Shown piece by piece: positions 24,142 to 62,021 of a DNA stretch of 64,000 nucleotides. The notes beneath the pieces are model-generated. The model was not told the DNA's origin, searched no databases, and saw only the letters and a program-made list of their open reading frames with translations. Every line of letters begins with the position of its first letter. Position 1 is the first letter of the stretch. The translations under genes and the position numbers were made by a program. This stretch comes from Escherichia phage AV125. Location: sequence record OR352955.1; one strand, 5' to 3'.

Positions 24142-24547
24142 TACCCCTCCATTCAAGACAAGCCATAACTTTACGCCAATCACTTTCTGTAAGAAAAATC
24201 TCGTTTGCTTTCTTCCACAAATCTAAATCGTGAAGGGTTGGAATACGATATGTTAGTTCACAGAATCTATGCTCTTCTTCTGTAATATAACCAAAATGCA
24301 GAGCCACATCGTGAAACCAACACCAACCATGCATCTCTCGAACAACATGGTCATGCTGAGACATTGTTTTATGCCGTAAACCTAACCAACAAGGAACAGA
24401 TATTTTAGTAGTCTTTAATCTGTGATCAACAGTATTAGAGTATTCAATAATAGCTGTCAGTTTCAATCGTGCTTTTTCTAAATCCTCATGGGTCACTTTG
24501 AAATAACTTTCTGAAAGATATCCACACATATTAATAACCTCCTTCAA
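24134..24547 (-). CDS. hypothetical protein
   Basis: 137-aa ORF, Cys/His/Trp-rich. Confidence 0.5.
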   Translation of the reverse strand: MKEVINMCGYLSESYFKVTHEDLEKARLKLTAIIEYSNTVDHRLKTTKISVPCWLGLRHKTMSQHDHVVREMHGWCWFHDVALHFGYITEEEHRFCELTYRIPTLHDLDLWKKANEIFLTESDWRKVMACLEWRGNE

Positions 24548-25472
24548 AAGGCTTAACTACATGTTGATTAGCTTTAAAACGTTCAACATAGTCATTTTCG
24601 CCCATGTTTTCATATAGCTTAGTAACAACATAAAAGTTTTCCCAAGCATATTCCCTAAACCAACCACTAGTGATGGATGTGCAGACTTTAGATAAAGCCA
24701 TTATAAAACTTTGCTTAGGGGTTGGACCTCCAATCTCTTCACCGAAAGGAATTTGTGAACGTTCCAAAGCCAAAACACACGCTTCTTCATAAACACCTAA
24801 CAGGCGCACATGTTTTGGTTGAGCAAAAAACTTTTCTTTGCTGGTCATAACTTCACTTCCATCTTTCATATAAGATTTATATGCTGGAGCATCCATTAAC
24901 GCGATTGCTTCATGGATAGAATCATGATCATAAACATACGGAACCTCGTCACCTTTAAAGAAGTCTTTACTTTTTACGTTTAAGTTCGGATGAGAGTAAG
25001 TGTATGTTTCTTTCTCACGCAACTCATAAATACTCTTAAGATTTTCTGGGATCTTTGCGCCCAGTGACCGCATGAAATGAATATCTTTCATAGTTTTAAA
25101 GAAATGAGGACTATCCTTTTTAAAACGATGACTCATTTTAAGAAGGTAGAGCACATCTAAAGGAGCAACAACATGTCCAGCGTAAGTTCGACGAACATCA
25201 TCAGAATCTTCACAATAACTAATCAAAGCTTCTGTGCTATCTCCTTGAGAAGCAATATCGTATTCCAAATGTGCACCAGTTATCATTTTGACATGGCCTT
25301 TGTTTCCTTTACGTTCTACAAGTTCAACAAACTCCTCTTGAGAGAACATTTTTGATAATTCTTCCCACTCTTGTTCTGTACACAGGTAATCTAAATCTAC
25401 ACAAGGGCGATACAAGTCTTTTCCCATGTCCATAGCATGAATTTGCAATGCACGGCTACCAATTAACACCAT
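24531..25472 (-). CDS. hypothetical protein, possible Pol-beta-superfamily nucleotidyltransferase
   Basis: 313 aa; N-terminal LIGSRALQIH...CVDLDYL resembles the GS...DxD nucleotidyltransferase signature but spacing is atypical. Confidence 0.5.
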   Translation of the reverse strand: MVLIGSRALQIHAMDMGKDLYRPCVDLDYLCTEQEWEELSKMFSQEEFVELVERKGNKGHVKMITGAHLEYDIASQGDSTEALISYCEDSDDVRRTYAGHVVAPLDVLYLLKMSHRFKKDSPHFFKTMKDIHFMRSLGAKIPENLKSIYELREKETYTYSHPNLNVKSKDFFKGDEVPYVYDHDSIHEAIALMDAPAYKSYMKDGSEVMTSKEKFFAQPKHVRLLGVYEEACVLALERSQIPFGEEIGGPTPKQSFIMALSKVCTSITSGWFREYAWENFYVVTKLYENMGENDYVERFKANQHVVKPFEGGY

Positions 25473-25537
25473 AATATTTCTCCTCTATTGGTTGATAGGT
25501 TAAGTTTATCAAGCTTCCAGATTCCTGTCAATAAAAA

Positions 25538-25553
25538 ACCCGCCGAAGCGGGT
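25538..25553 (-). repeat. intergenic UUCG-tetraloop hairpin
   Basis: ACCCGC-CGAA-GCGGGT. Confidence 0.55.
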
Positions 25554-25562
25554 TATTATTTA

Positions 25563-25835
25563 CTAACACATTGAGGAAGAAGAGATCCAAACACCTCTTG
25601 TGGTTAAACCATTTTCATCCAACTCTACACCATAATCTTCACAAATGAAATCAATATAGTGATCTGCGGCTGGCGTTCCTGTAGGGTAATAAGTTTCTCC
25701 GTTACCGTAGTCACCTATCCAAGCTTGTTCCTGAAACTGTTCACAAAGTTCTTCAATTTCCTTACGAAACTTTCTTTGTGCTTGTTCCATCTCTTTAACT
25801 TTCTTTTTTATCAGCAGTTCGCCTTCAGACTCCAC
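25563..25835 (-). CDS. family C small acidic protein (paralog 1 of 3)
   Basis: 90 aa ending ...RGVWISSSSMC. Confidence 0.55.
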   Translation of the reverse strand: MESEGELLIKKKVKEMEQAQRKFRKEIEELCEQFQEQAWIGDYGNGETYYPTGTPAADHYIDFICEDYGVELDENGLTTRGVWISSSSMC

Positions 25836-25844
25836 AATCTCTCC

Positions 25845-26063
25845 TTAACAGCTACTACTGTGCCAAACGCCTTGAGAATTAACGACGAAACCATCATCAC
25901 CTTCACCATAACAAGAAGAGGATTGCCAATCTTCAAAACAGATTGCGTCATCTTCTAAACTAAGACCAAAACCAGCATCTTCAGCTTCTTTTGTAAGTTC
26001 GTCCACTAAAGCCATAATAGCTTGGGCTTTTTCAGTTAATTCTTCAACATTACGATAACTCAT
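25845..26063 (-). CDS. family C small acidic protein (paralog 2 of 3)
   Basis: Start at ATG 26063 (TAATG overlap with upstream stop); ends ...QGVWHSSSC. Confidence 0.55.
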   Translation of the reverse strand: MSYRNVEELTEKAQAIMALVDELTKEAEDAGFGLSLEDDAICFEDWQSSSCYGEGDDGFVVNSQGVWHSSSC

Positions 26064-26371
26064 TAGTATTTCTCCTCTGGTTGGAAAACGGAACGACAGG
26101 CCCACATAGAAGCTTCTTTCAACTTAGTCTTTGCTATTGAAATTTGGTCAAGGCGGGTGGATATATTGGTAGACTCTTCCAAATCTTCACAATCGTCCAG
26201 TTCAGCCCACAATTCAGACATTAGAGCATCAAAGATTAATCCTAATCGAACTTCAGCATCTTTAATAGCATTCACTTTACCAATTTTGTCATCGGTATGC
26301 GGTTTATAACCTTTGATATCTTCGATTCCCACTTTACCTCCTATTAACAACTTAAAGAAGATGGATGCCAA
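26063..26371 (-). CDS. hypothetical protein
   Basis: 102-aa ORF. Confidence 0.5.
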   Translation of the reverse strand: MASIFFKLLIGGKVGIEDIKGYKPHTDDKIGKVNAIKDAEVRLGLIFDALMSELWAELDDCEDLEESTNISTRLDQISIAKTKLKEASMWACRSVFQPEEKY

Positions 26372-26541
26372 TTTGTTCCAGTGTTCTCATTTTCGTCTTC
26401 TGGATCATAATAACCACCCATCCCATATTCAGGGGAGAAACGGAAACCTTTACCAGTCTCATCTGCTAACTGCTCTGCTTCCGCTAAAGCCTCATAAGCT
26501 GCTTTTACGGCTTCTTCTACTGTTTTAAACTTGGTCGTCAT
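26344..26541 (-). CDS. family C small acidic protein (paralog 3 of 3)
   Basis: 65 aa ending ...TNWHPSSLSC. Confidence 0.5.
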   Translation of the reverse strand: MTTKFKTVEEAVKAAYEALAEAEQLADETGKGFRFSPEYGMGGYYDPEDENENTGTNWHPSSLSC

Positions 26542-26815
26542 AAAATTTCTCCTCTCCTAAAGACATGTTGACATGAAATGCGCGGTATGTAAATTCGTTG
26601 TCCGTTGTGTTAGAATAAAACTCAAATTGAACAACACCGTCTTGAGAAGACAAATACATGCCAATTTGAACTGTTCCTTCTGGTACCAGGTAAGCATACT
26701 CTGGACGTAGTGTTACATTGTAAAAATAAAGTTCCCCAACACCCATTTCATCCCAAGCTTCCCAAGCGGTAACGAAGTTACTTTCAAAACTTGTTACTGA
26801 TCCGAACTCTGCCAT
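26525..26815 (-). CDS. hypothetical protein
   Basis: 96-aa ORF. Confidence 0.5.
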   Translation of the reverse strand: MAEFGSVTSFESNFVTAWEAWDEMGVGELYFYNVTLRPEYAYLVPEGTVQIGMYLSSQDGVVQFEFYSNTTDNEFTYRAFHVNMSLGEEKFYDDQV

Positions 26816-27306
26816 AAAACCTCCTCAATCTTGTAGTTTGACTCCATCTCCAACACATTTCCACGAACGTCTCTCCGAAGAAAGGCATAAGCTTTATTAG
26901 GTATTGTAGACTCATATTTAACCATATCTGGCACAGCAAAAGATACTACTACTCCTGCTGGGCTTCTGTCAAGAGCCTTATTAATATTTCTAAGGATATC
27001 GTTAGCCAAGATTTCTGCCAATTCTCCAAGAACAGTTTCTGTTATATCTTTATATCCCATTAAGTATTTGTTGATATCTTTCATCTCCGTATTGTTCAGA
27101 GTATAGTCCAAAGGATAGAAATTCAAAGCGGAGTCACTTTTATGTGTCCACATGAAATGCACCCGATCCGAGCAGAATCGTAACCCTCTTTGAAGAATAT
27201 CTTCTACAACAGGCAGAATTTCTTTTGTCACATCATTAACCATGTTGTAATCTAAGATTTCTGCCAAGTTTGTTCTTTGTTCACCACGTTTACGTTTAGG
27301 AATCAC
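26794..27306 (-). CDS. hypothetical protein
   Basis: 170-aa ORF. Confidence 0.55.
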   Translation of the reverse strand: MIPKRKRGEQRTNLAEILDYNMVNDVTKEILPVVEDILQRGLRFCSDRVHFMWTHKSDSALNFYPLDYTLNNTEMKDINKYLMGYKDITETVLGELAEILANDILRNINKALDRSPAGVVVSFAVPDMVKYESTIPNKAYAFLRRDVRGNVLEMESNYKIEEVLWQSSDQ

Positions 27307-27901
27307 TTGTTATTGCCCTCATTACCAAAGGTCGTAGAAAATCGTAAATCTCTTGTTTTGTTTTCCCACGAATGTTTAAACAAGGAACATTATTGGCTTT
27401 AGCTATCTTCCAAGCCGTAGCTGTTCCACCTTTTGCATCTCCATGTTTATCAGTATTAGCACAAGCCAACAAGAAACATGATGGAGCAGGATTCTCCAAA
27501 TCTCTACCTAACACTTGATGCACATTACGTTGGTGCAATTTTCTAGCACCCTGCTTAAGCTTTTCATAGGCTGGGTGAACATCTTTGATCCATTGCACAG
27601 AGATAGCATAGTTCATTGTATCTGGTTTTGCAAGAACAATAACATCCCCTGGAATCTGATTACCTTTGAAATTTTCCCAAGGAACATAAATCTCCTTGTT
27701 AGTAGGATTTTCAGACTCTTGGACACCTGTTTCAAAAGCAGAATCACTACCCTCTGCCTTCCCAGACCTTAATTTAAACCCAAGGTTTGAAAGCCATTTC
27801 CCTATGCCTACCATCAAAGCCCACTCTTCTTCGGATATGTCTCTACTTCCAACTCCCGTATAGAACAGTTCTGCCATAATCACCTCAACAAGTAATTTCA
27901 A
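27296..27901 (-). CDS. hypothetical protein, possible Rossmann-like (SLOG/DprA-like) fold
   Basis: 201 aa; YTGVGSR...SGKAEGSDSA pattern is only weakly diagnostic. Confidence 0.5.
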   Translation of the reverse strand: MKLLVEVIMAELFYTGVGSRDISEEEWALMVGIGKWLSNLGFKLRSGKAEGSDSAFETGVQESENPTNKEIYVPWENFKGNQIPGDVIVLAKPDTMNYAISVQWIKDVHPAYEKLKQGARKLHQRNVHQVLGRDLENPAPSCFLLACANTDKHGDAKGGTATAWKIAKANNVPCLNIRGKTKQEIYDFLRPLVMRAITSDS

Positions 27902-28193
27902 AAGGTGTATAGGGTTCCGTATTTCTCATGATCCAAGGACTGCTAGGATTGCTCGGATCATAAGGGCCAAAAGGTTTTATGGTAGGTTGTGTTTCTTTCT
28001 TCTGAATCTCTTCAAAAATACGACGAAGTTCAGAATATTCTTGATCCACCATAAGATTCGGTGCATCTGATTCTACAGCTTGCAGGTTATCTTCCTTAAG
28101 AACAATCTCACGAACAAGATTAACATCTTCTGTTTCTAAGATAACTTCTTTACGGATATTACCTACACTTTGAATAATTGTAATCTTATACAT
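27885..28193 (-). CDS. hypothetical protein
   Basis: 102-aa ORF. Confidence 0.5.
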   Translation of the reverse strand: MYKITIIQSVGNIRKEVILETEDVNLVREIVLKEDNLQAVESDAPNLMVDQEYSELRRIFEEIQKKETQPTIKPFGPYDPSNPSSPWIMRNTEPYTPFEITC

Positions 28194-28936
28194 TAATCCT
28201 CCTCAAGAGTTGAATAAAATTGAAGACCACCGTCCATATCGAAATAAGCAAATGTTAAGTTATTATTGAACACAGATCCAGTATCCATATAAACACGATT
28301 CGCATTGATAATAGGTGTTTTTACATAAGAGTGTCCATGAAACACATAATCCACACCCATCACAACAGGAAGTTTCATTCCCTCTTTAGCACAGTCTACC
28401 ATATCTCTGTCCCACATAAGTGCTTCAGCAAAACGGTTTTCCTGTGTTTTTGTCATCTTCGAAATGTATTCTGGAATATCTGTTACAGGGAGATATTCCA
28501 AAGAAGATGGATACCCACCATGAATAAACGCAAGTTTCATGCCTCTGTAGTTAACAATGAGAACAACAGGTAAATCTTCTGTCATCATTGCTAAGGCTGT
28601 AGCTCCTTCTTCACCACATTCTTCAAAGACCGTATATCCTCCATTTTGATACCAACACTCATAGTAGCTACGATCTCCTTCCAGCATACCTTTAATCATC
28701 ATGTCTTCATGATTGCCACGAATAGCGTAGCGATTGTGTTTACGAGTAAATTCTAAAACACAACGAAAGTTTTGCTTTCCACGGTCAGTAAGATCTCCTA
28801 GAGATACAACCACATCTGTATCTCGGATACCTAACTTTGCCTTTCCTTTTTCATACAAATTATAACAACCGTGTAGATCTCCAATTATAAAAAGATCTTG
28901 ATCGCTTTTAACAGTAATTTCTCTGTGTATGATCAC
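28193..28936 (-). CDS. Ser/Thr protein phosphatase-like metallophosphatase (PPP family)
   Basis: GDLHGC, GDLTDRG, RGNHED motifs in canonical order. Confidence 0.75.
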   Translation of the reverse strand: MIIHREITVKSDQDLFIIGDLHGCYNLYEKGKAKLGIRDTDVVVSLGDLTDRGKQNFRCVLEFTRKHNRYAIRGNHEDMMIKGMLEGDRSYYECWYQNGGYTVFEECGEEGATALAMMTEDLPVVLIVNYRGMKLAFIHGGYPSSLEYLPVTDIPEYISKMTKTQENRFAEALMWDRDMVDCAKEGMKLPVVMGVDYVFHGHSYVKTPIINANRVYMDTGSVFNNNLTFAYFDMDGGLQFYSTLEED

Positions 28937-59894: not shown

Positions 59895-59966
59895 GGCCCT
59901 GTAGCTCAATGGGAGAGCTGTCGGCTCATAACCGATAGGTAGCTGGATCGAAACCAGCCAGGGCCA
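59895..59966 (+). tRNA. tRNA-Met (anticodon CAT; could also be Ile2 or initiator)
   Basis: Cloverleaf folded by hand: acceptor GGCCCTG/CAGGGCC, anticodon loop CTCATAA, T-loop ATCGAAA; CCA encoded. Confidence 0.8.
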
Positions 59967-59971
59967 CCAAA

Positions 59972-60043
59972 GTCTTTATGGTGTAATGGATAGCACAGGA
60001 GTCTTCTAAACTCTTAGTCAAGGTTCGATTCCTTGTAAAGACA
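59972..60043 (+). tRNA. tRNA-Arg (anticodon TCT)
   Basis: Acceptor GTCTTTA/TAAAGAC, anticodon loop CTTCTAA, T-arm CAAGG-TTCGATT-CCTTG; CCA encoded. Confidence 0.8.
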
Positions 60044-60242
60044 CCAGAACATTTTAACATGAATTAGCTCAAGTGATTTGAACCCACTACTGATCATGGT
60101 GGCAGAGAATGAGGCAAGTATGTCAGACATTATAAACAAAGGCCACGGTTATATTAGAAGACATAAATGCTCGAAGAGCACCGTTCGTGGAGAACGGGGG
60201 TTGGTGGAGTCACCATTCATGGTAAAATGTTTTAAAAAACTA

Positions 60243-60271
60243 TTGACAACAAACATTATTTTATGTTAGAT
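60243..60271 (+). promoter_or_regulatory. sigma70-like promoter within tRNA cluster
   Basis: TTGACA 60243-60248, 17-bp spacer, TTAGAT; 10 nt before tRNA-Ser. Confidence 0.55.
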
Positions 60272-60280
60272 TATAAGTAT

Positions 60281-60368
60281 GGAAGGGCAAATCGATGTGG
60301 CGACGAAAACGGTCTTGAAAACCGCCGAGCTTGAAAGAGCCTTGGGAGTTCGACTCTCCCTCCTTCCG
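60281..60368 (+). tRNA. tRNA-Ser (anticodon TGA), class II
   Basis: Acceptor GGAAGGG/TCCTTCC, anticodon loop CTTGAAA, long variable arm, T-arm GGGAG-TTCGACT-CTCCC; CCA encoded. Confidence 0.8.
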
Positions 60369-60376
60369 CCAGATTA

Positions 60377-60459
60377 GGTAGATTGGTGAAATGGTAGCCA
60401 CGACAGTTTGCTAAACTGTAGTCGGAAACGGCGTGTAGGTTCGAGTCCTACATCTACCG
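60377..60459 (+). tRNA. tRNA-Ser (anticodon GCT), class II
   Basis: Acceptor GGTAGAT/ATCTACC, anticodon stem ACAGT/ACTGT, loop TTGCTAA, variable arm with GAAA loop; CCA encoded. Confidence 0.8.
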
Positions 60460-60461
60460 CC

Positions 60462-60592
60462 AAGTTCTTTTTAATGTAGCTTACTTTAGCAGAGTAAATC
60501 TTCGGCAAGTGGCGGTAACCACTTTACCGATACCTCATAGTTAGTGGTGTGAACACTGGCTATTTTAAAAAGAATTTAAATATTAGTATTTA
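60462..60592 (+). ncRNA. candidate small RNA between tRNAs
   Basis: 131-nt spacer with no tRNA fold and no ORF; internal GTGG...CCAC complementarity; T4 carries small stable RNAs at the equivalent place. Confidence 0.3.
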
Positions 60593-60677
60593 GGTGAGTT
60601 AATTCCGTAGGGGTAGCGGGGCAGACTGTAAATCTGTTATCATTGCGATTCGGGTGGTTCGACTCCATCACTCACCA
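60593..60677 (+). tRNA. tRNA-Tyr (anticodon GTA), class II
   Basis: Closely parallels E. coli tRNA-Tyr: GCAGACTGTAAATCTG anticodon arm, long variable arm, acceptor GGTGAGT/ACTCACC; CCA encoded. Confidence 0.8.
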
Positions 60678-60686
60678 CCAAATTAA

Positions 60687-60769
60687 GATGAGTTGGCTGA
60701 ATGGTTTAAGCGGCGGACTGTTAATCCGTGTTCGAAAGAACAATATAGGTTCGAATCCTATACTCATCG
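60687..60769 (+). tRNA. class II-type tRNA with GTT (Asn) anticodon by loop geometry
   Basis: Perfect 7-bp acceptor GATGAGT/ACTCATC, T-arm ATAGG-TTCGAAT-CCTAT, 3-bp D-stem, 15-nt variable arm (GTTC-GAAA-GAAC), anticodon loop CTGTTAA closed by GCGGA/TCCGT. Confidence 0.5.
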
Positions 60770-60779
60770 CCAGAATTAT

Positions 60780-60856
60780 GGACTTGTAGAGTTAAGGTAA
60801 ACCCCCAGTCGCCAATAGGCTTCTGGAATTGCAGGTATCGAATCCTGCCGAGTCCC
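60780..60856 (+). pseudogene. tRNA-like element with aberrant anticodon arm
   Basis: 7-bp acceptor GGACTTG/CGAGTCC and T-arm GCAGG...TCGAAT...CCTGC present, but no canonical 5-bp/7-nt anticodon stem-loop and no CCA. Confidence 0.3.
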
Positions 60857-60862
60857 AGCATT

Positions 60863-60934
60863 GCTCCTATAGTATAATGGCTATTACAACGGTTTTGTAA
60901 TCCGTGGATCTCTGTTCGATTCAGTGTGGGAGCA
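60863..60934 (+). tRNA. tRNA-Thr (anticodon TGT)
   Basis: Acceptor GCTCCTA/TGGGAGC, anticodon loop TTTGTAA with a 4-bp stem, T-loop TTCGATT; CCA encoded. Confidence 0.65.
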
Positions 60935-60937
60935 CCA

Positions 60938-61200
60938 ACACAACATTAAGAGCACTGTGATTGATCGTCGTATCCTGTGCACAAGGTCTGCTCGAAAGAC
61001 AGTGTTCTTAGTATTGTGTTGATCACAAAAAGAGTCACCCGAAACTTGACCGGAGTAGGGTTGGATGGGGCAAAATGAGAAGCGGCTCTCCCATCGACAG
61101 CAACGAAGAATAATATTTGACTTTGGTTTTGTATTATTTTAAGTTAGCTTACCGAACGTAGGGCTAGTCACCCAACGGGATACTCGTCACTGTCCCAATC
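60938..61200 (+). ncRNA. candidate structured RNA or spacer within tRNA cluster
   Basis: About 260 nt without ORF or tRNA fold; CACTGTG ... ACAGTG and other inverted repeats. Confidence 0.25.
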
Positions 61201-61210
61201 AATAAAAGTC

Positions 61211-61240
61211 TTGACAACAAATAGTAAAATGTAGTATAGT
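61211..61240 (+). promoter_or_regulatory. sigma70-like promoter within tRNA cluster
   Basis: TTGACA 61211-61216, 18-bp spacer, TATAGT; 11 nt before tRNA-Gly. Confidence 0.55.
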
Positions 61241-61251
61241 AAATATATATG

Positions 61252-61322
61252 GCGTTCTTGGTGTAGCGGTAGCATTCCGTCCTTCCAAGTCGGCGGCACG
61301 AGTTCGATCCTCGTAGAACGCT
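61252..61322 (+). tRNA. tRNA-Gly (anticodon TCC)
   Basis: Acceptor GCGTTCT/AGAACGC, anticodon loop CTTCCAA, T-arm ACGAG-TTCGATC-CTCGT; CCA encoded; D-arm not cleanly resolved by hand. Confidence 0.65.
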
Positions 61323-61423
61323 CCAAATTATTTAATAAAGGGTTGCCAGAAAACTTTCTCTTTTACTCATGGTTTTCTCCTTCTCTCACACTTCTTCTGG
61401 TTGCCCTTCATTAAATGATTTAT

Positions 61424-61496
61424 TGGTTTGTAGTGTAGTCCGGTAGCACACGACACTTTGACTGTCGTAGGTTTGGTTCAAATCCAGACAGACCAG
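61424..61496 (+). tRNA. tRNA-Gln (anticodon TTG)
   Basis: U1-A72 acceptor TGGTTTG/CAGACCA, anticodon stem CGACA/TGTCG, loop CTTTGAC, T-loop TTCAAAT; CCA encoded. Confidence 0.8.
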
Positions 61497-61592
61497 CCAT
61501 ATAACAAAGGTGAGTCACTACCTTAAGTGTGAAGTTAAAAACGAGGAGCCGCCGAACACTTTCTTTTGCGGTGTACCTTTAGAATGTTATCA

Positions 61593-61666
61593 CGGGACGT
61601 AGCACAGCTTGGTAGTGCGCTCGCTTTGGGAGCGAGAGGTCGAGTGTTCGAATCACTCCGTCCCGA
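61593..61666 (+). tRNA. tRNA-Pro (anticodon TGG)
   Basis: C1-G72 acceptor CGGGACG/CGTCCCG as in E. coli tRNA-Pro, D-stem GCAC/GTGC, anticodon stem CTCGC/GCGAG, loop TTTGGGA; CCA encoded. Confidence 0.85.
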
Positions 61667-61675
61667 CCAATTAAA

Positions 61676-61746
61676 TGTTTCGTAGTTCAATGGTAGAACC
61701 CACGACTGATAATCGTGAGACACAAGTTCGATTCTTGTCGAAACAA
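61676..61746 (+). tRNA. tRNA-Ile (anticodon GAT)
   Basis: Acceptor TGTTTCG/CGAAACA, D-stem GTTC/GAAC, anticodon stem CACGA/TCGTG, loop CTGATAA; CCA encoded. Confidence 0.8.
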
Positions 61747-61751
61747 CCAGT

Positions 61752-61821
61752 TTCCCGTTAGACTTACAGGATAAGAGTTCCACAGCTTATTGTGATGCTG
61801 GTTCGAATCCAGCACGGGATA
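61752..61821 (+). pseudogene. tRNA-like element with non-canonical anticodon region
   Basis: Acceptor TTCCCGT/ACGGGAT (6 of 7 pairs) and perfect T-arm GCTGG-TTCGAAT-CCAGC, but the central region only forms ATAAG/CTTAT with a 10-nt loop; no CCA. Confidence 0.3.
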
Positions 61822-61827
61822 CATAAT

Positions 61828-61903
61828 AGCGGGATAGAGGAGTCTGGTCGTCCTCGCCAGTTTCATATGCTGGAGATCATCGGTTCAAATCCGATTCCCG
61901 CCT
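61828..61903 (+). tRNA. tRNA with CAT anticodon (Met or Ile2), A1-C72 acceptor mismatch
   Basis: Anticodon stem CCAGT/GCTGG, loop TTCATAT, T-arm ATCGG-TTCAAAT-CCGAT, acceptor AGCGGGA/TCCCGCC; CCA encoded. Confidence 0.65.
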
Positions 61904-62021
61904 CCAAATATCGCTTGCCAGCGGTATCTTTGAAGACCTTGCCTGGTTCCTTCTAAGATGGAGGGGTGCGACTCCTTAACGCACAATTATAATAAAGCAT
62001 TTCAACTTAACAGTATTTACT

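Follow-up and report, generated by a model that had tools for sequence, protein, structure and literature searches.

Diverged acidic phage proteins with a common Ser-Ser/Cys C-terminal end are genetically linked to a nucleotidyltransferase-fold enzyme in Escherichia phage AV125 and other large phages

What could be the role of a nearly identical C-terminal end carried by several small proteins that are encoded close together in one phage genome? The question is raised by Escherichia phage AV125 (OR352955.1), of which a stretch of 64,000 nucleotides (hereafter the window) was analyzed. Three open reading frames (ORFs) on the minus strand, A (25563..25835, 90 amino acids), B (25845..26063, 72 amino acids) and C (26344..26541, 65 amino acids), encode acidic proteins ending in GVWISSSSMC, GVWHSSSC and NWHPSSLSC, respectively. 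The original prediction for this locus had described these ORFs and ends correctly, and had regarded the tail as a signal for a shared modification or as the binding site of a common partner. The present analysis indicates that the small proteins very probably work together with the enzyme encoded immediately downstream (24531..25472, minus strand, 313 amino acids), with the tail serving as the interface, on the grounds of their genetic linkage, the fold and active site of the enzyme, and the conservation of the tail.

The tails are encoded at 25566..25589 in ORF A (W-I-S-S-S-S-M-C, followed by the stop codon), 25848..25865 in ORF B (W-H-S-S-S-C) and 26347..26370 in ORF C (W-H-P-S-S-L-S-C), all on the minus strand. 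The motif is duplicated in ORF B, where an internal copy not listed in the original prediction (25911..25928, minus strand; W46-Q-S-S-S-C51, WQSSSC) is directly followed by YGEG, and this internal copy was kept in the B-type homologs. Among the 667 stop-to-stop ORFs of at least 40 amino acids in all six frames of the window, A, B and C were the only ones with an end of the form W-x(0-3)-SS-x(0-3)-C. The isoelectric points (pI) of A, B and C were 4.40, 4.05 and 4.31 with net charges of -10, -13 and -8, and the grand average of hydropathy (GRAVY) ranged from -0.35 to -0.87, indicating hydrophilic proteins. The three genes lie within a long run of small early-type genes, and each possesses a properly spaced Shine-Dalgarno sequence: the GTG start of A is preceded by AAGGAG, the ATG start of B by GAGGAG, and the ATG start of C by GGAGAGGAG. 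The start of B overlaps the stop codon of an Acb2-like gene (TAATG). The region is 99% identical to phAPEC8-like coliphages (Phapecoctavirus, Stephanstirmvirinae), and the phAPEC8 equivalents of A, B and C, gp78, gp79 and gp81, are each annotated as 'hypothetical protein'. Comparison with orthologs that were 70-82% identical in protein sequence, where synonymous divergence (dS) was unsaturated, gave ratios of nonsynonymous to synonymous divergence (dN/dS) of 0.05-0.19 (0.13 for ORF B and 0.05-0.19 for ORF C), demonstrating that these are real genes under purifying selection. For ORF A against its ortholog, dN was 0.18 and dS was saturated.

All three proteins matched the phage orthologous group PHROG 899 (phrog_899), with E-values of 5e-14 for A, 7e-6 for B and 1e-12 for C, and on this sequence evidence they are homologous, not convergent. 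Their pairwise identities were 27-37%. They had been called otherwise diverged, which is only partly right, as the three-protein alignment contained a shared helix, a beta-hairpin with YG-x-G and a strand with the Trp residue. Against Pfam, NCBIfam and PADLOC, the three sequences gave sub-threshold noise only (Snapin, TPR, the SflA lanthipeptide model and ZorB), and no match to PF24729 (Acb2_Tad1_hairpin) was obtained. A further ORF of the window (26794-27306, minus strand, 170 amino acids), ending in EEVLWQSSDQ, was considered as a fourth, degenerate member and rejected, as it had no similarity to the tail family and possessed a separate ortholog in a related phage (L050, 3448-3996); its tail resemblance looks coincidental.

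A profile built from the three ORFs and their relatives retrieved 283 clusters from a 90%-clustered database and 496 representatives at 50% identity, and a Pfam domain or name was found on none of them. The motif was thus not absent from related phages, the outcome that the original prediction had named as speaking against it: two database searches supplied 260 homologs, of which 257 had the Cys as the terminal residue and the other three had 1-4 additional residues past it. The Trp was present in 99% of these 260 sequences and, counted from the last Trp, Ser at +3 in 99%, Ser at +4 in 98% and Cys at +7 in 97%. Other subtypes had 0-3 residues between Ser-Ser and Cys, with Cys still the last residue; a terminal Cys in spite of variable spacing from Ser-Ser would be expected if the free C-terminus itself were recognized. 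The median net charge was -10, and 82 of the first 126 sequences had no second Cys. The family members consist of an amphipathic helix (…EAE-x-lADE-x-G), a strand (sFsFs), Y-G-M-G-G, and a variable acidic linker, sometimes with extra [DE]-W-x-S-S repeats, before the end G-W-x-[SPA]-S-S-x-x-C. The YG-x-[GA] element was found in 249 of 260 homologs and reads DYGNG in A, CYGEG in B and EYGMGG in C. The bodies carrying the tail ranged from 52 to 170 amino acids in length. The N-terminal extensions of the long members were inspected by eye for a fused enzymatic domain and looked helical or coiled-coil only. No other part of the proteins in this very large family comes close to the tail in sequence conservation.

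The three ORFs are three ancient paralogous types of this phage-specific family of acidic alpha/beta proteins of 60-100 amino acids: type A ('DYGNGETYYP … GVWISSSSMC'), type B with the duplicated motif, and the canonical type represented by C ('EYGMGGYYDP … NWHPSSLSC'). Phage JS98 (Dhakavirus, NC_010105) carries five consecutive tail ORFs upstream of orf122, its nucleotidyltransferase gene. Among them are an A-like ORF (orf129), a C-like ORF (orf128) and a B-like ORF (orf126), the last with the internal W-x-x-S-S-C-Y-G-E duplication as well. This agreement with the types in the window indicates that A, B and C are old and have been maintained separately. In the same genome (L137, 3486-3695, plus strand), a 69-amino-acid tail ORF ending in GFWFSSSMSC lies between orf127 and orf126 and is absent from the RefSeq annotation. 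The largest arrays, with six tail ORFs detectable by hidden Markov model (HMM), were seen in T4-like contigs of about 168 kb (L104, L108, L110 and L116); the nucleotidyltransferase gene is preceded by five copies and followed by one, the latter with a variant tail (GWQPSAQSC or GWQPSAGIC).

The structure of ORF C was predicted with AlphaFold2 from an alignment of 101 sequences, with a mean predicted local distance difference test (pLDDT) score of 91, falling to 74 in the last block of residues. The model comprised a helix (residues 8-29) and three strands (33-38, 41-45 and 58-60). The invariant Trp58 was located in strand 3, which packs on the helix, and residues 61-63 (P-S-S) formed a turn. 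In this model the Trp looks structural, and Ser-Ser-…-Cys looks like a short terminal appendage. The tail family showed no sequence or fold similarity to any solved protein.

The combination of the tail family with a DUF7277/DUF7275 protein, such as the one encoded next to ORF A, was first met in Pseudomonas phage phiPsa315, the T4-like Edwardsiella phage PEi20 and a metagenomic contig. To quantify it, IMG/VR contigs were reached by two short peptide patterns, which favors the canonical YGMGG subtype in the statistics given here. Starting from the tail side, 43 IMG/VR loci were found by the YGMGG pattern, and in 42 of them a DUF7275 gene was located downstream on the same strand within about 0-1.5 kb; in the 43rd it lay about 30 kb off on the same contig. 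Starting from the enzyme side, 1-6 HMM-detectable tail ORFs were present in 70 of 79 DUF7275 loci, with a tail ORF upstream on the same strand in 69 of the 70 (median gap 531 bp, maximum 2580 bp). Many loci contained further ORFs detected by the end motif only, and T4-like genomes carried arrays of five or six. Nine loci lacked an HMM match: motif-ended ORFs were seen in six by pattern search only, the identical loci L118 and L119 had a degenerate member (…EEWYSSSEAWTPSGCSY), and L103, where a tRNA array abuts the enzyme gene, was the sole locus of the 79 without tail genes.

When all ORFs of the 43 loci were clustered, the tail family and DUF7275 were the only families common to them, and the next real family occurred in at most 14 loci. 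The linkage was accordingly specific, and synteny by common descent of a larger block was excluded. A scan of cellular genomes, with each of 185,579 bacterial and archaeal species represented by a single genome, gave just five matches to the enzyme. These were all on contigs of 2-167 kb from metagenome-assembled genomes, and tail ORFs were located directly upstream in every case. The enzyme was also found without tail genes, in L103 and in actinophage and KVP40-like phages, whereas every contig with tail genes was found to carry the enzyme as well. These results demonstrated that the tail genes and the enzyme gene form a phage-only pair, or an array plus one gene, with near-obligatory linkage.

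In the window, the end of ORF A (25563) precedes the start of the enzyme gene (25472) on the same strand. A strong terminator-like hairpin (AACCCGCTTCGGCGGGTT with a T run; 25537..25554, minus strand) begins 9 nucleotides past the stop codon of A and is annotated as a terminator in phAPEC8. It is followed by a sigma-70-like promoter ahead of the enzyme gene (25503..25531, minus strand; TTGACA-17-TAAACT with a TG extension), assigned by consensus match only. A terminator-like hairpin after the last tail gene was found in 29 of 97 distinct loci, when compared to 6.4% of other ORF ends, a background that includes the ends of some non-genes. A TTGACA (-35-like) sequence was located in the loop or stem of the hairpin following the last tail gene in Pseudomonas-phage-like loci (L002, L043, L057, L060, L063, L067, L070 and L071), and may represent a combined terminator/promoter element recurring in that group.

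The neighboring protein, equivalent to phAPEC8 gp77, had no Pfam match at E-values up to 0.1 beyond DUF7275 and DUF7277, save a sub-threshold match to CLCA. PDB searches with the single sequence and with a profile gave no match, and only the fold search was productive, with MenT1 toxin (8an4, score 11.7), TglT/MenT3 (6j7n, 10.2), ANT(2'') (4xje, 9.5), MenT4 (6y56, 9.0) and LnuA (4wh5, 8.9). These matches indicated a DUF1814/AbiEii-like nucleotidyltransferase fold of the Pol-beta type. The catalytic site is intact, as G5-S6, D26-x-D28, E70, K112 and D130 were invariant in 56 homologs. The stretch from about residue 140 to residue 313 is an additional helical domain in which many His, Asp, Arg and Cys residues are invariant. 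In the comparison with tail-less homologs, H123, R152, Y157/Y159 and H161 were invariant only in the tail-linked clade, while C264 and R273 were invariant in this clade and also kept by the tail-less J2-1. H123 was replaced in L103, which has no tail genes, and in L118, which has the degenerate tail. This comparison, a lead from few sequences, suggests a site that might anchor a thiolate and a carboxylate, possibly via a metal.

The enzyme was present in 734 of 50,697 phage records, distributed over Phapecoctavirus, many T4-like genera, Otagovirus-like Pseudomonas phages and jumbo phages. Carriers included the Dhakavirus phages JS98, JS10 and Bp7, as well as RB69, where, according to the annotation notes of JS98, the enzyme is ORF134c with ORF135c-139c upstream; these notes name RB69 ORF134c-139c as the equivalents of the JS98 genes. 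Distant homologs in actinophages and KVP40-like phages lacked profile columns 33-96 and had no tail ORFs nearby. One such tail-less homolog, in Streptomyces phage BillNye (L128, 4854-5600), lies amid genes for RNA ligase, polynucleotide kinase (Pnk) and RNA ligase, and another, in Gordonia phage Culver (L129, 3663-4454), adjoins a tRNA gene array. These contexts fit the tRNA-end chemistry of the MenT family (PMC10435456), and are a hint at a role of the enzyme family in RNA repair or at tRNA ends. A consistent tRNA link of the whole module was considered and dropped, since tRNA genes were nearby in some loci but not consistently, and the observation was kept as a hint for the enzyme only.

The expectation of a conserved C-terminal element serving a shared modification or a common binding partner was upheld in its general form, while the evidence pointed to the adjacent phage enzyme and not to a host protein as the partner. 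The tail is most likely a docking or modification handle for this enzyme. As to what happens there, we tentatively favor the reading that the small proteins are clients or substrates of the enzyme, a possible rather than a secure assignment as regards contact, chemistry and downstream role. In such a mechanism, the Trp in the third strand would be structural, and Ser-Ser with the terminal Cys would form a short exposed handle recognized by the nucleotidyltransferase. The terminal Cys, with its thiolate and free carboxylate, might be anchored at H123, R152 and H161 together with C264 and R273, which would place the Ser hydroxyls at the GS…DxD…E two-metal site to receive a nucleotide (O-linked nucleoside monophosphate, O-NMP). 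The modification could then switch several diverged early effectors, acting in host take-over or anti-defense, on or off.

The client reading is favored because several diverged paralogs, up to five or six, are kept per genome, with types A, B and C maintained from Phapecoctavirus to Dhakavirus JS98, and because one and the same tail is placed on bodies of very different length. It also agrees with the one-sided dependence of the pair, in which the enzyme can exist without tail genes but the reverse was not found, and with the requirement for a terminal Cys at variable spacing. Apart from Cys, the two invariant residues without a structural role are both Ser, and hydroxyls are the groups to which nucleotidyltransferases transfer NMP. 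The common occurrence of a terminator between the putative substrate genes and the enzyme gene, and the restriction of invariant H123, R152 and H161 to the tail-linked clade, point in the same direction. Several observations weigh against it. The closest solved relatives of the enzyme act on tRNA 3' ends or small molecules and not on proteins (PMC10435456), and the closest of all, MenT1, has a 68-amino-acid inhibitor encoded upstream, so that the gene order fits an inhibitor equally well. The enzyme itself is acidic (pI 5.6, net charge -11), and binding of the tail proteins is thus not explained by simple charge complementarity. The proposed anchoring residues depend on a handful of tail-less homologs. 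Finally, Ser-Ser follows directly after the Trp strand and was modeled as a helical turn in ORF C, and its conservation could therefore be structural.

The main alternative is that the small proteins are antitoxin-like inhibitors forming a phage MenAT-like pair with the enzyme, in which the N-terminal helix, the tail or both would block the active site and time a tRNA-modifying activity during infection. We consider this unlikely, though not negligible. MenT1 is neutralized by the directly upstream-encoded MenA1, a long helix of which blocks the active sites (PMC10435456), and the upstream position of the tail genes in 69 of 70 loci, the amphipathic helix conserved at the start of every family member, and the RNA-related neighborhoods of distant enzyme homologs, which fit a tRNA substrate, all agree with such a role. 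One inhibitor would suffice, however, yet up to five or six diverged paralogs are kept, with types conserved across distant phages; moreover, the most conserved element is the terminal tail and not the helix. Neither sequence nor fold relates the tail proteins to MenA1, some phages have the enzyme without tail genes, and the terminator and separate promoter between the genes in the window are unlike typical toxin-antitoxin operons. The enzyme also has the canonical D-x-D in place of the S/T-x-D of MenT1 and MenT3, and the module is essentially absent from cellular genomes. It is less probable still that the tail proteins act on host targets alone, for example by plugging the metal center of a host defense or housekeeping enzyme with the terminal Cys thiolate and carboxylate, and that the enzyme gene is a mere pathway neighbor such as a co-regulated counter-defense gene. 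Small size, strong acidity, an early-region location and several fast-diverging paralogs are typical of anti-defense genes, an anti-CBASS-type gene with an Acb2/Tad1 hairpin lies in the same operon in the window (CBASS, cyclic-oligonucleotide-based antiphage signaling system), and a terminator separates the tail genes from the enzyme gene. Against these points, the near-universal linkage to one gene across unrelated neighborhoods and phage groups is far tighter than in anti-defense islands, the Acb2-like gene is not conserved in the other loci, and no match to PADLOC or known anti-defense families was obtained.

Lipidation of the terminal Cys, or use of the tail as a proteolysis or targeting signal, had been offered as examples in the original prediction, and we regard this as extremely improbable, as only the strict conservation of the terminal Cys speaks for it. 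Bacterial lipoproteins are acylated on an N-terminal Cys; lipidation would call for a signal peptide and lipobox Cys at the N-terminus or for a C-a-a-X sequence at the C-terminus, and the known C-terminal degrons of E. coli are non-polar (ssrA-type). The proteins in question have charged hydrophilic N-termini that lack both a signal peptide and a lipobox, their Cys is terminal and hence leaves no CaaX box, and the tail is not non-polar, unlike these degrons. Both proposals would also leave the linkage to a nucleotidyltransferase gene unexplained.

A more far-reaching version of the chemistry, in which Ser nucleotidylylation would be followed by beta-elimination to dehydroalanine, yielding either a lanthionine-like C-terminal ring with the Cys or an electrophilic warhead, appears quite improbable. 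The canonical tails do present Ser…Cys at i+3/i+4. This spacing is shared with precursor arrays of ribosomally synthesized and post-translationally modified peptides (RiPPs) such as lanthipeptides, in which, likewise, several short and otherwise diverged genes that have a conserved segment in common precede one enzyme gene and are often separated from it by a terminator. In contrast to leader-core peptides, the tail proteins are predicted to be folded (pLDDT 91), and the B-type tails have Cys directly after Ser-Ser. No LanB/LanM/LanC, YcaO or radical-SAM protein was found by Pfam among the 10 genes around the trio, and the only NCBIfam lanthipeptide match, of ORF B to SflA, scored 13.5 bits against a cut-off of 25. 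If the dehydroalanine reading were true, it would represent a new phage-encoded maturation chemistry on folded proteins, with up to six armed effectors per genome.

The nearest known systems are the DUF1814/AbiEii nucleotidyltransferase toxins, above all MenAT1 of Mycobacterium tuberculosis, which resembles the present module in gene order and in the MenT/AbiEii-type fold with its catalytic motifs. The two helices of MenA1 form a V, and its C-terminus is disordered and dispensable; the site of MenT1 is T39-x-D41, while S78 is the phosphorylated residue of MenT3 (PMC10435456). The tail proteins differ from MenA1 in having a helix, three strands and the invariant W-x-x-S-S-…-Cys end; the module is phage-only with 1-6 paralogs per genome; and the enzyme combines the canonical D-x-D with the extra C-terminal domain of about 170 amino acids (DUF7275). 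The upstream partners were not homologous to known antitoxins, whether MenA1 or the COG5340 type (MenA3, MenA4 and AbiEi), and the five matches in 185,579 species gave no indication of a two-gene cassette resident in bacterial chromosomes or plasmids. With no antitoxin homology, no residence in cellular genomes, no RiPP maturase and no lipobox or CaaX box, the system is set apart from MenAT pairs, RiPPs and lipidated proteins.

Modification of an adjacent gene product has a precedent in HEPN-MNT systems, where the minimal nucleotidyltransferase MntA poly-AMPylates the neighbor-encoded HepT, a HEPN RNase, on Tyr and thereby switches its activity. The module might be analogous in its idea of a small Pol-beta-fold nucleotidyltransferase acting on its neighbor, but its partners are tiny, acidic and tipped by Ser-Ser-…-Cys, its enzyme resembles MenT and not MNT, and the modification is only proposed. 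A comparison may also be drawn with small, very acidic carrier proteins, in which a conserved residue, either a Ser or one at the C-terminus, receives a group in phosphodiester or amide linkage from a dedicated enzyme: LysW has a C-terminal EDWGE tail, and CitD and MdcC, of the acyl carrier protein (ACP) type, are loaded on Ser by the nucleotidyltransferase-fold enzymes CitX and MdcG. The tail proteins share the small size, the acidity and a conserved, potentially reactive end with these carriers; they differ in having no metabolic pathway genes nearby, several paralogs per genome, a terminal Cys and no homology. Acb2/Tad1 sponges, one of which is encoded between C and B, are likewise small acidic early phage proteins, but A, B and C did not match PF24729 and have another predicted fold, and the Acb2 gene lies outside the conserved module.

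The system is thus classed as a nucleotidyltransferase with a probable dedicated small protein partner, and the partner family itself is new; searches of the literature yielded no account of the tail family, DUF7275/DUF7277 or the corresponding ORFs of RB69 and JS98. If the coupling is real, large virulent phages that infect Gram-negative bacteria would have a widespread two-component system in which a toxin-type nucleotidyltransferase fold, so far known from bacterial abortive-infection and toxin-antitoxin systems attacking tRNA ends, is joined to Cys-ended proteins. Whether the outcome were nucleotidylylation of a C-terminal protein handle or a MenAT-like switch carried by phages, it would be novel in phage biology. 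PHROG 899, DUF7275 and DUF7277 gain a context-based annotation, and model phages infecting K-12 allow direct testing of the system.

The tail genes appear to share a transcription unit with an ORF of 96 amino acids and with the Acb2/Tad1-hairpin-domain gene located between C and B (26063..26332, minus strand, gp80 equivalent; PF24729, 70 bits, E-value 2e-19). The product of the latter is likely an anti-CBASS/Thoeris 'sponge', and the gene was absent from most other tail-family loci and does not belong to the conserved module. Further genes of this early run, lying upstream of the tail genes, encode a DprA-like protein (27296-27901, minus strand; phrog_768, E-value 2e-62) and a calcineurin-like metallophosphatase (28193-28936, minus strand; PF00149, E-value 3e-13). 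An array of 10 tRNA genes (Met, Arg, Ser, Asn, Thr, Gly, Gln, Pro, Ile and Met) is located elsewhere in the window, at 59895-61906 on the plus strand.

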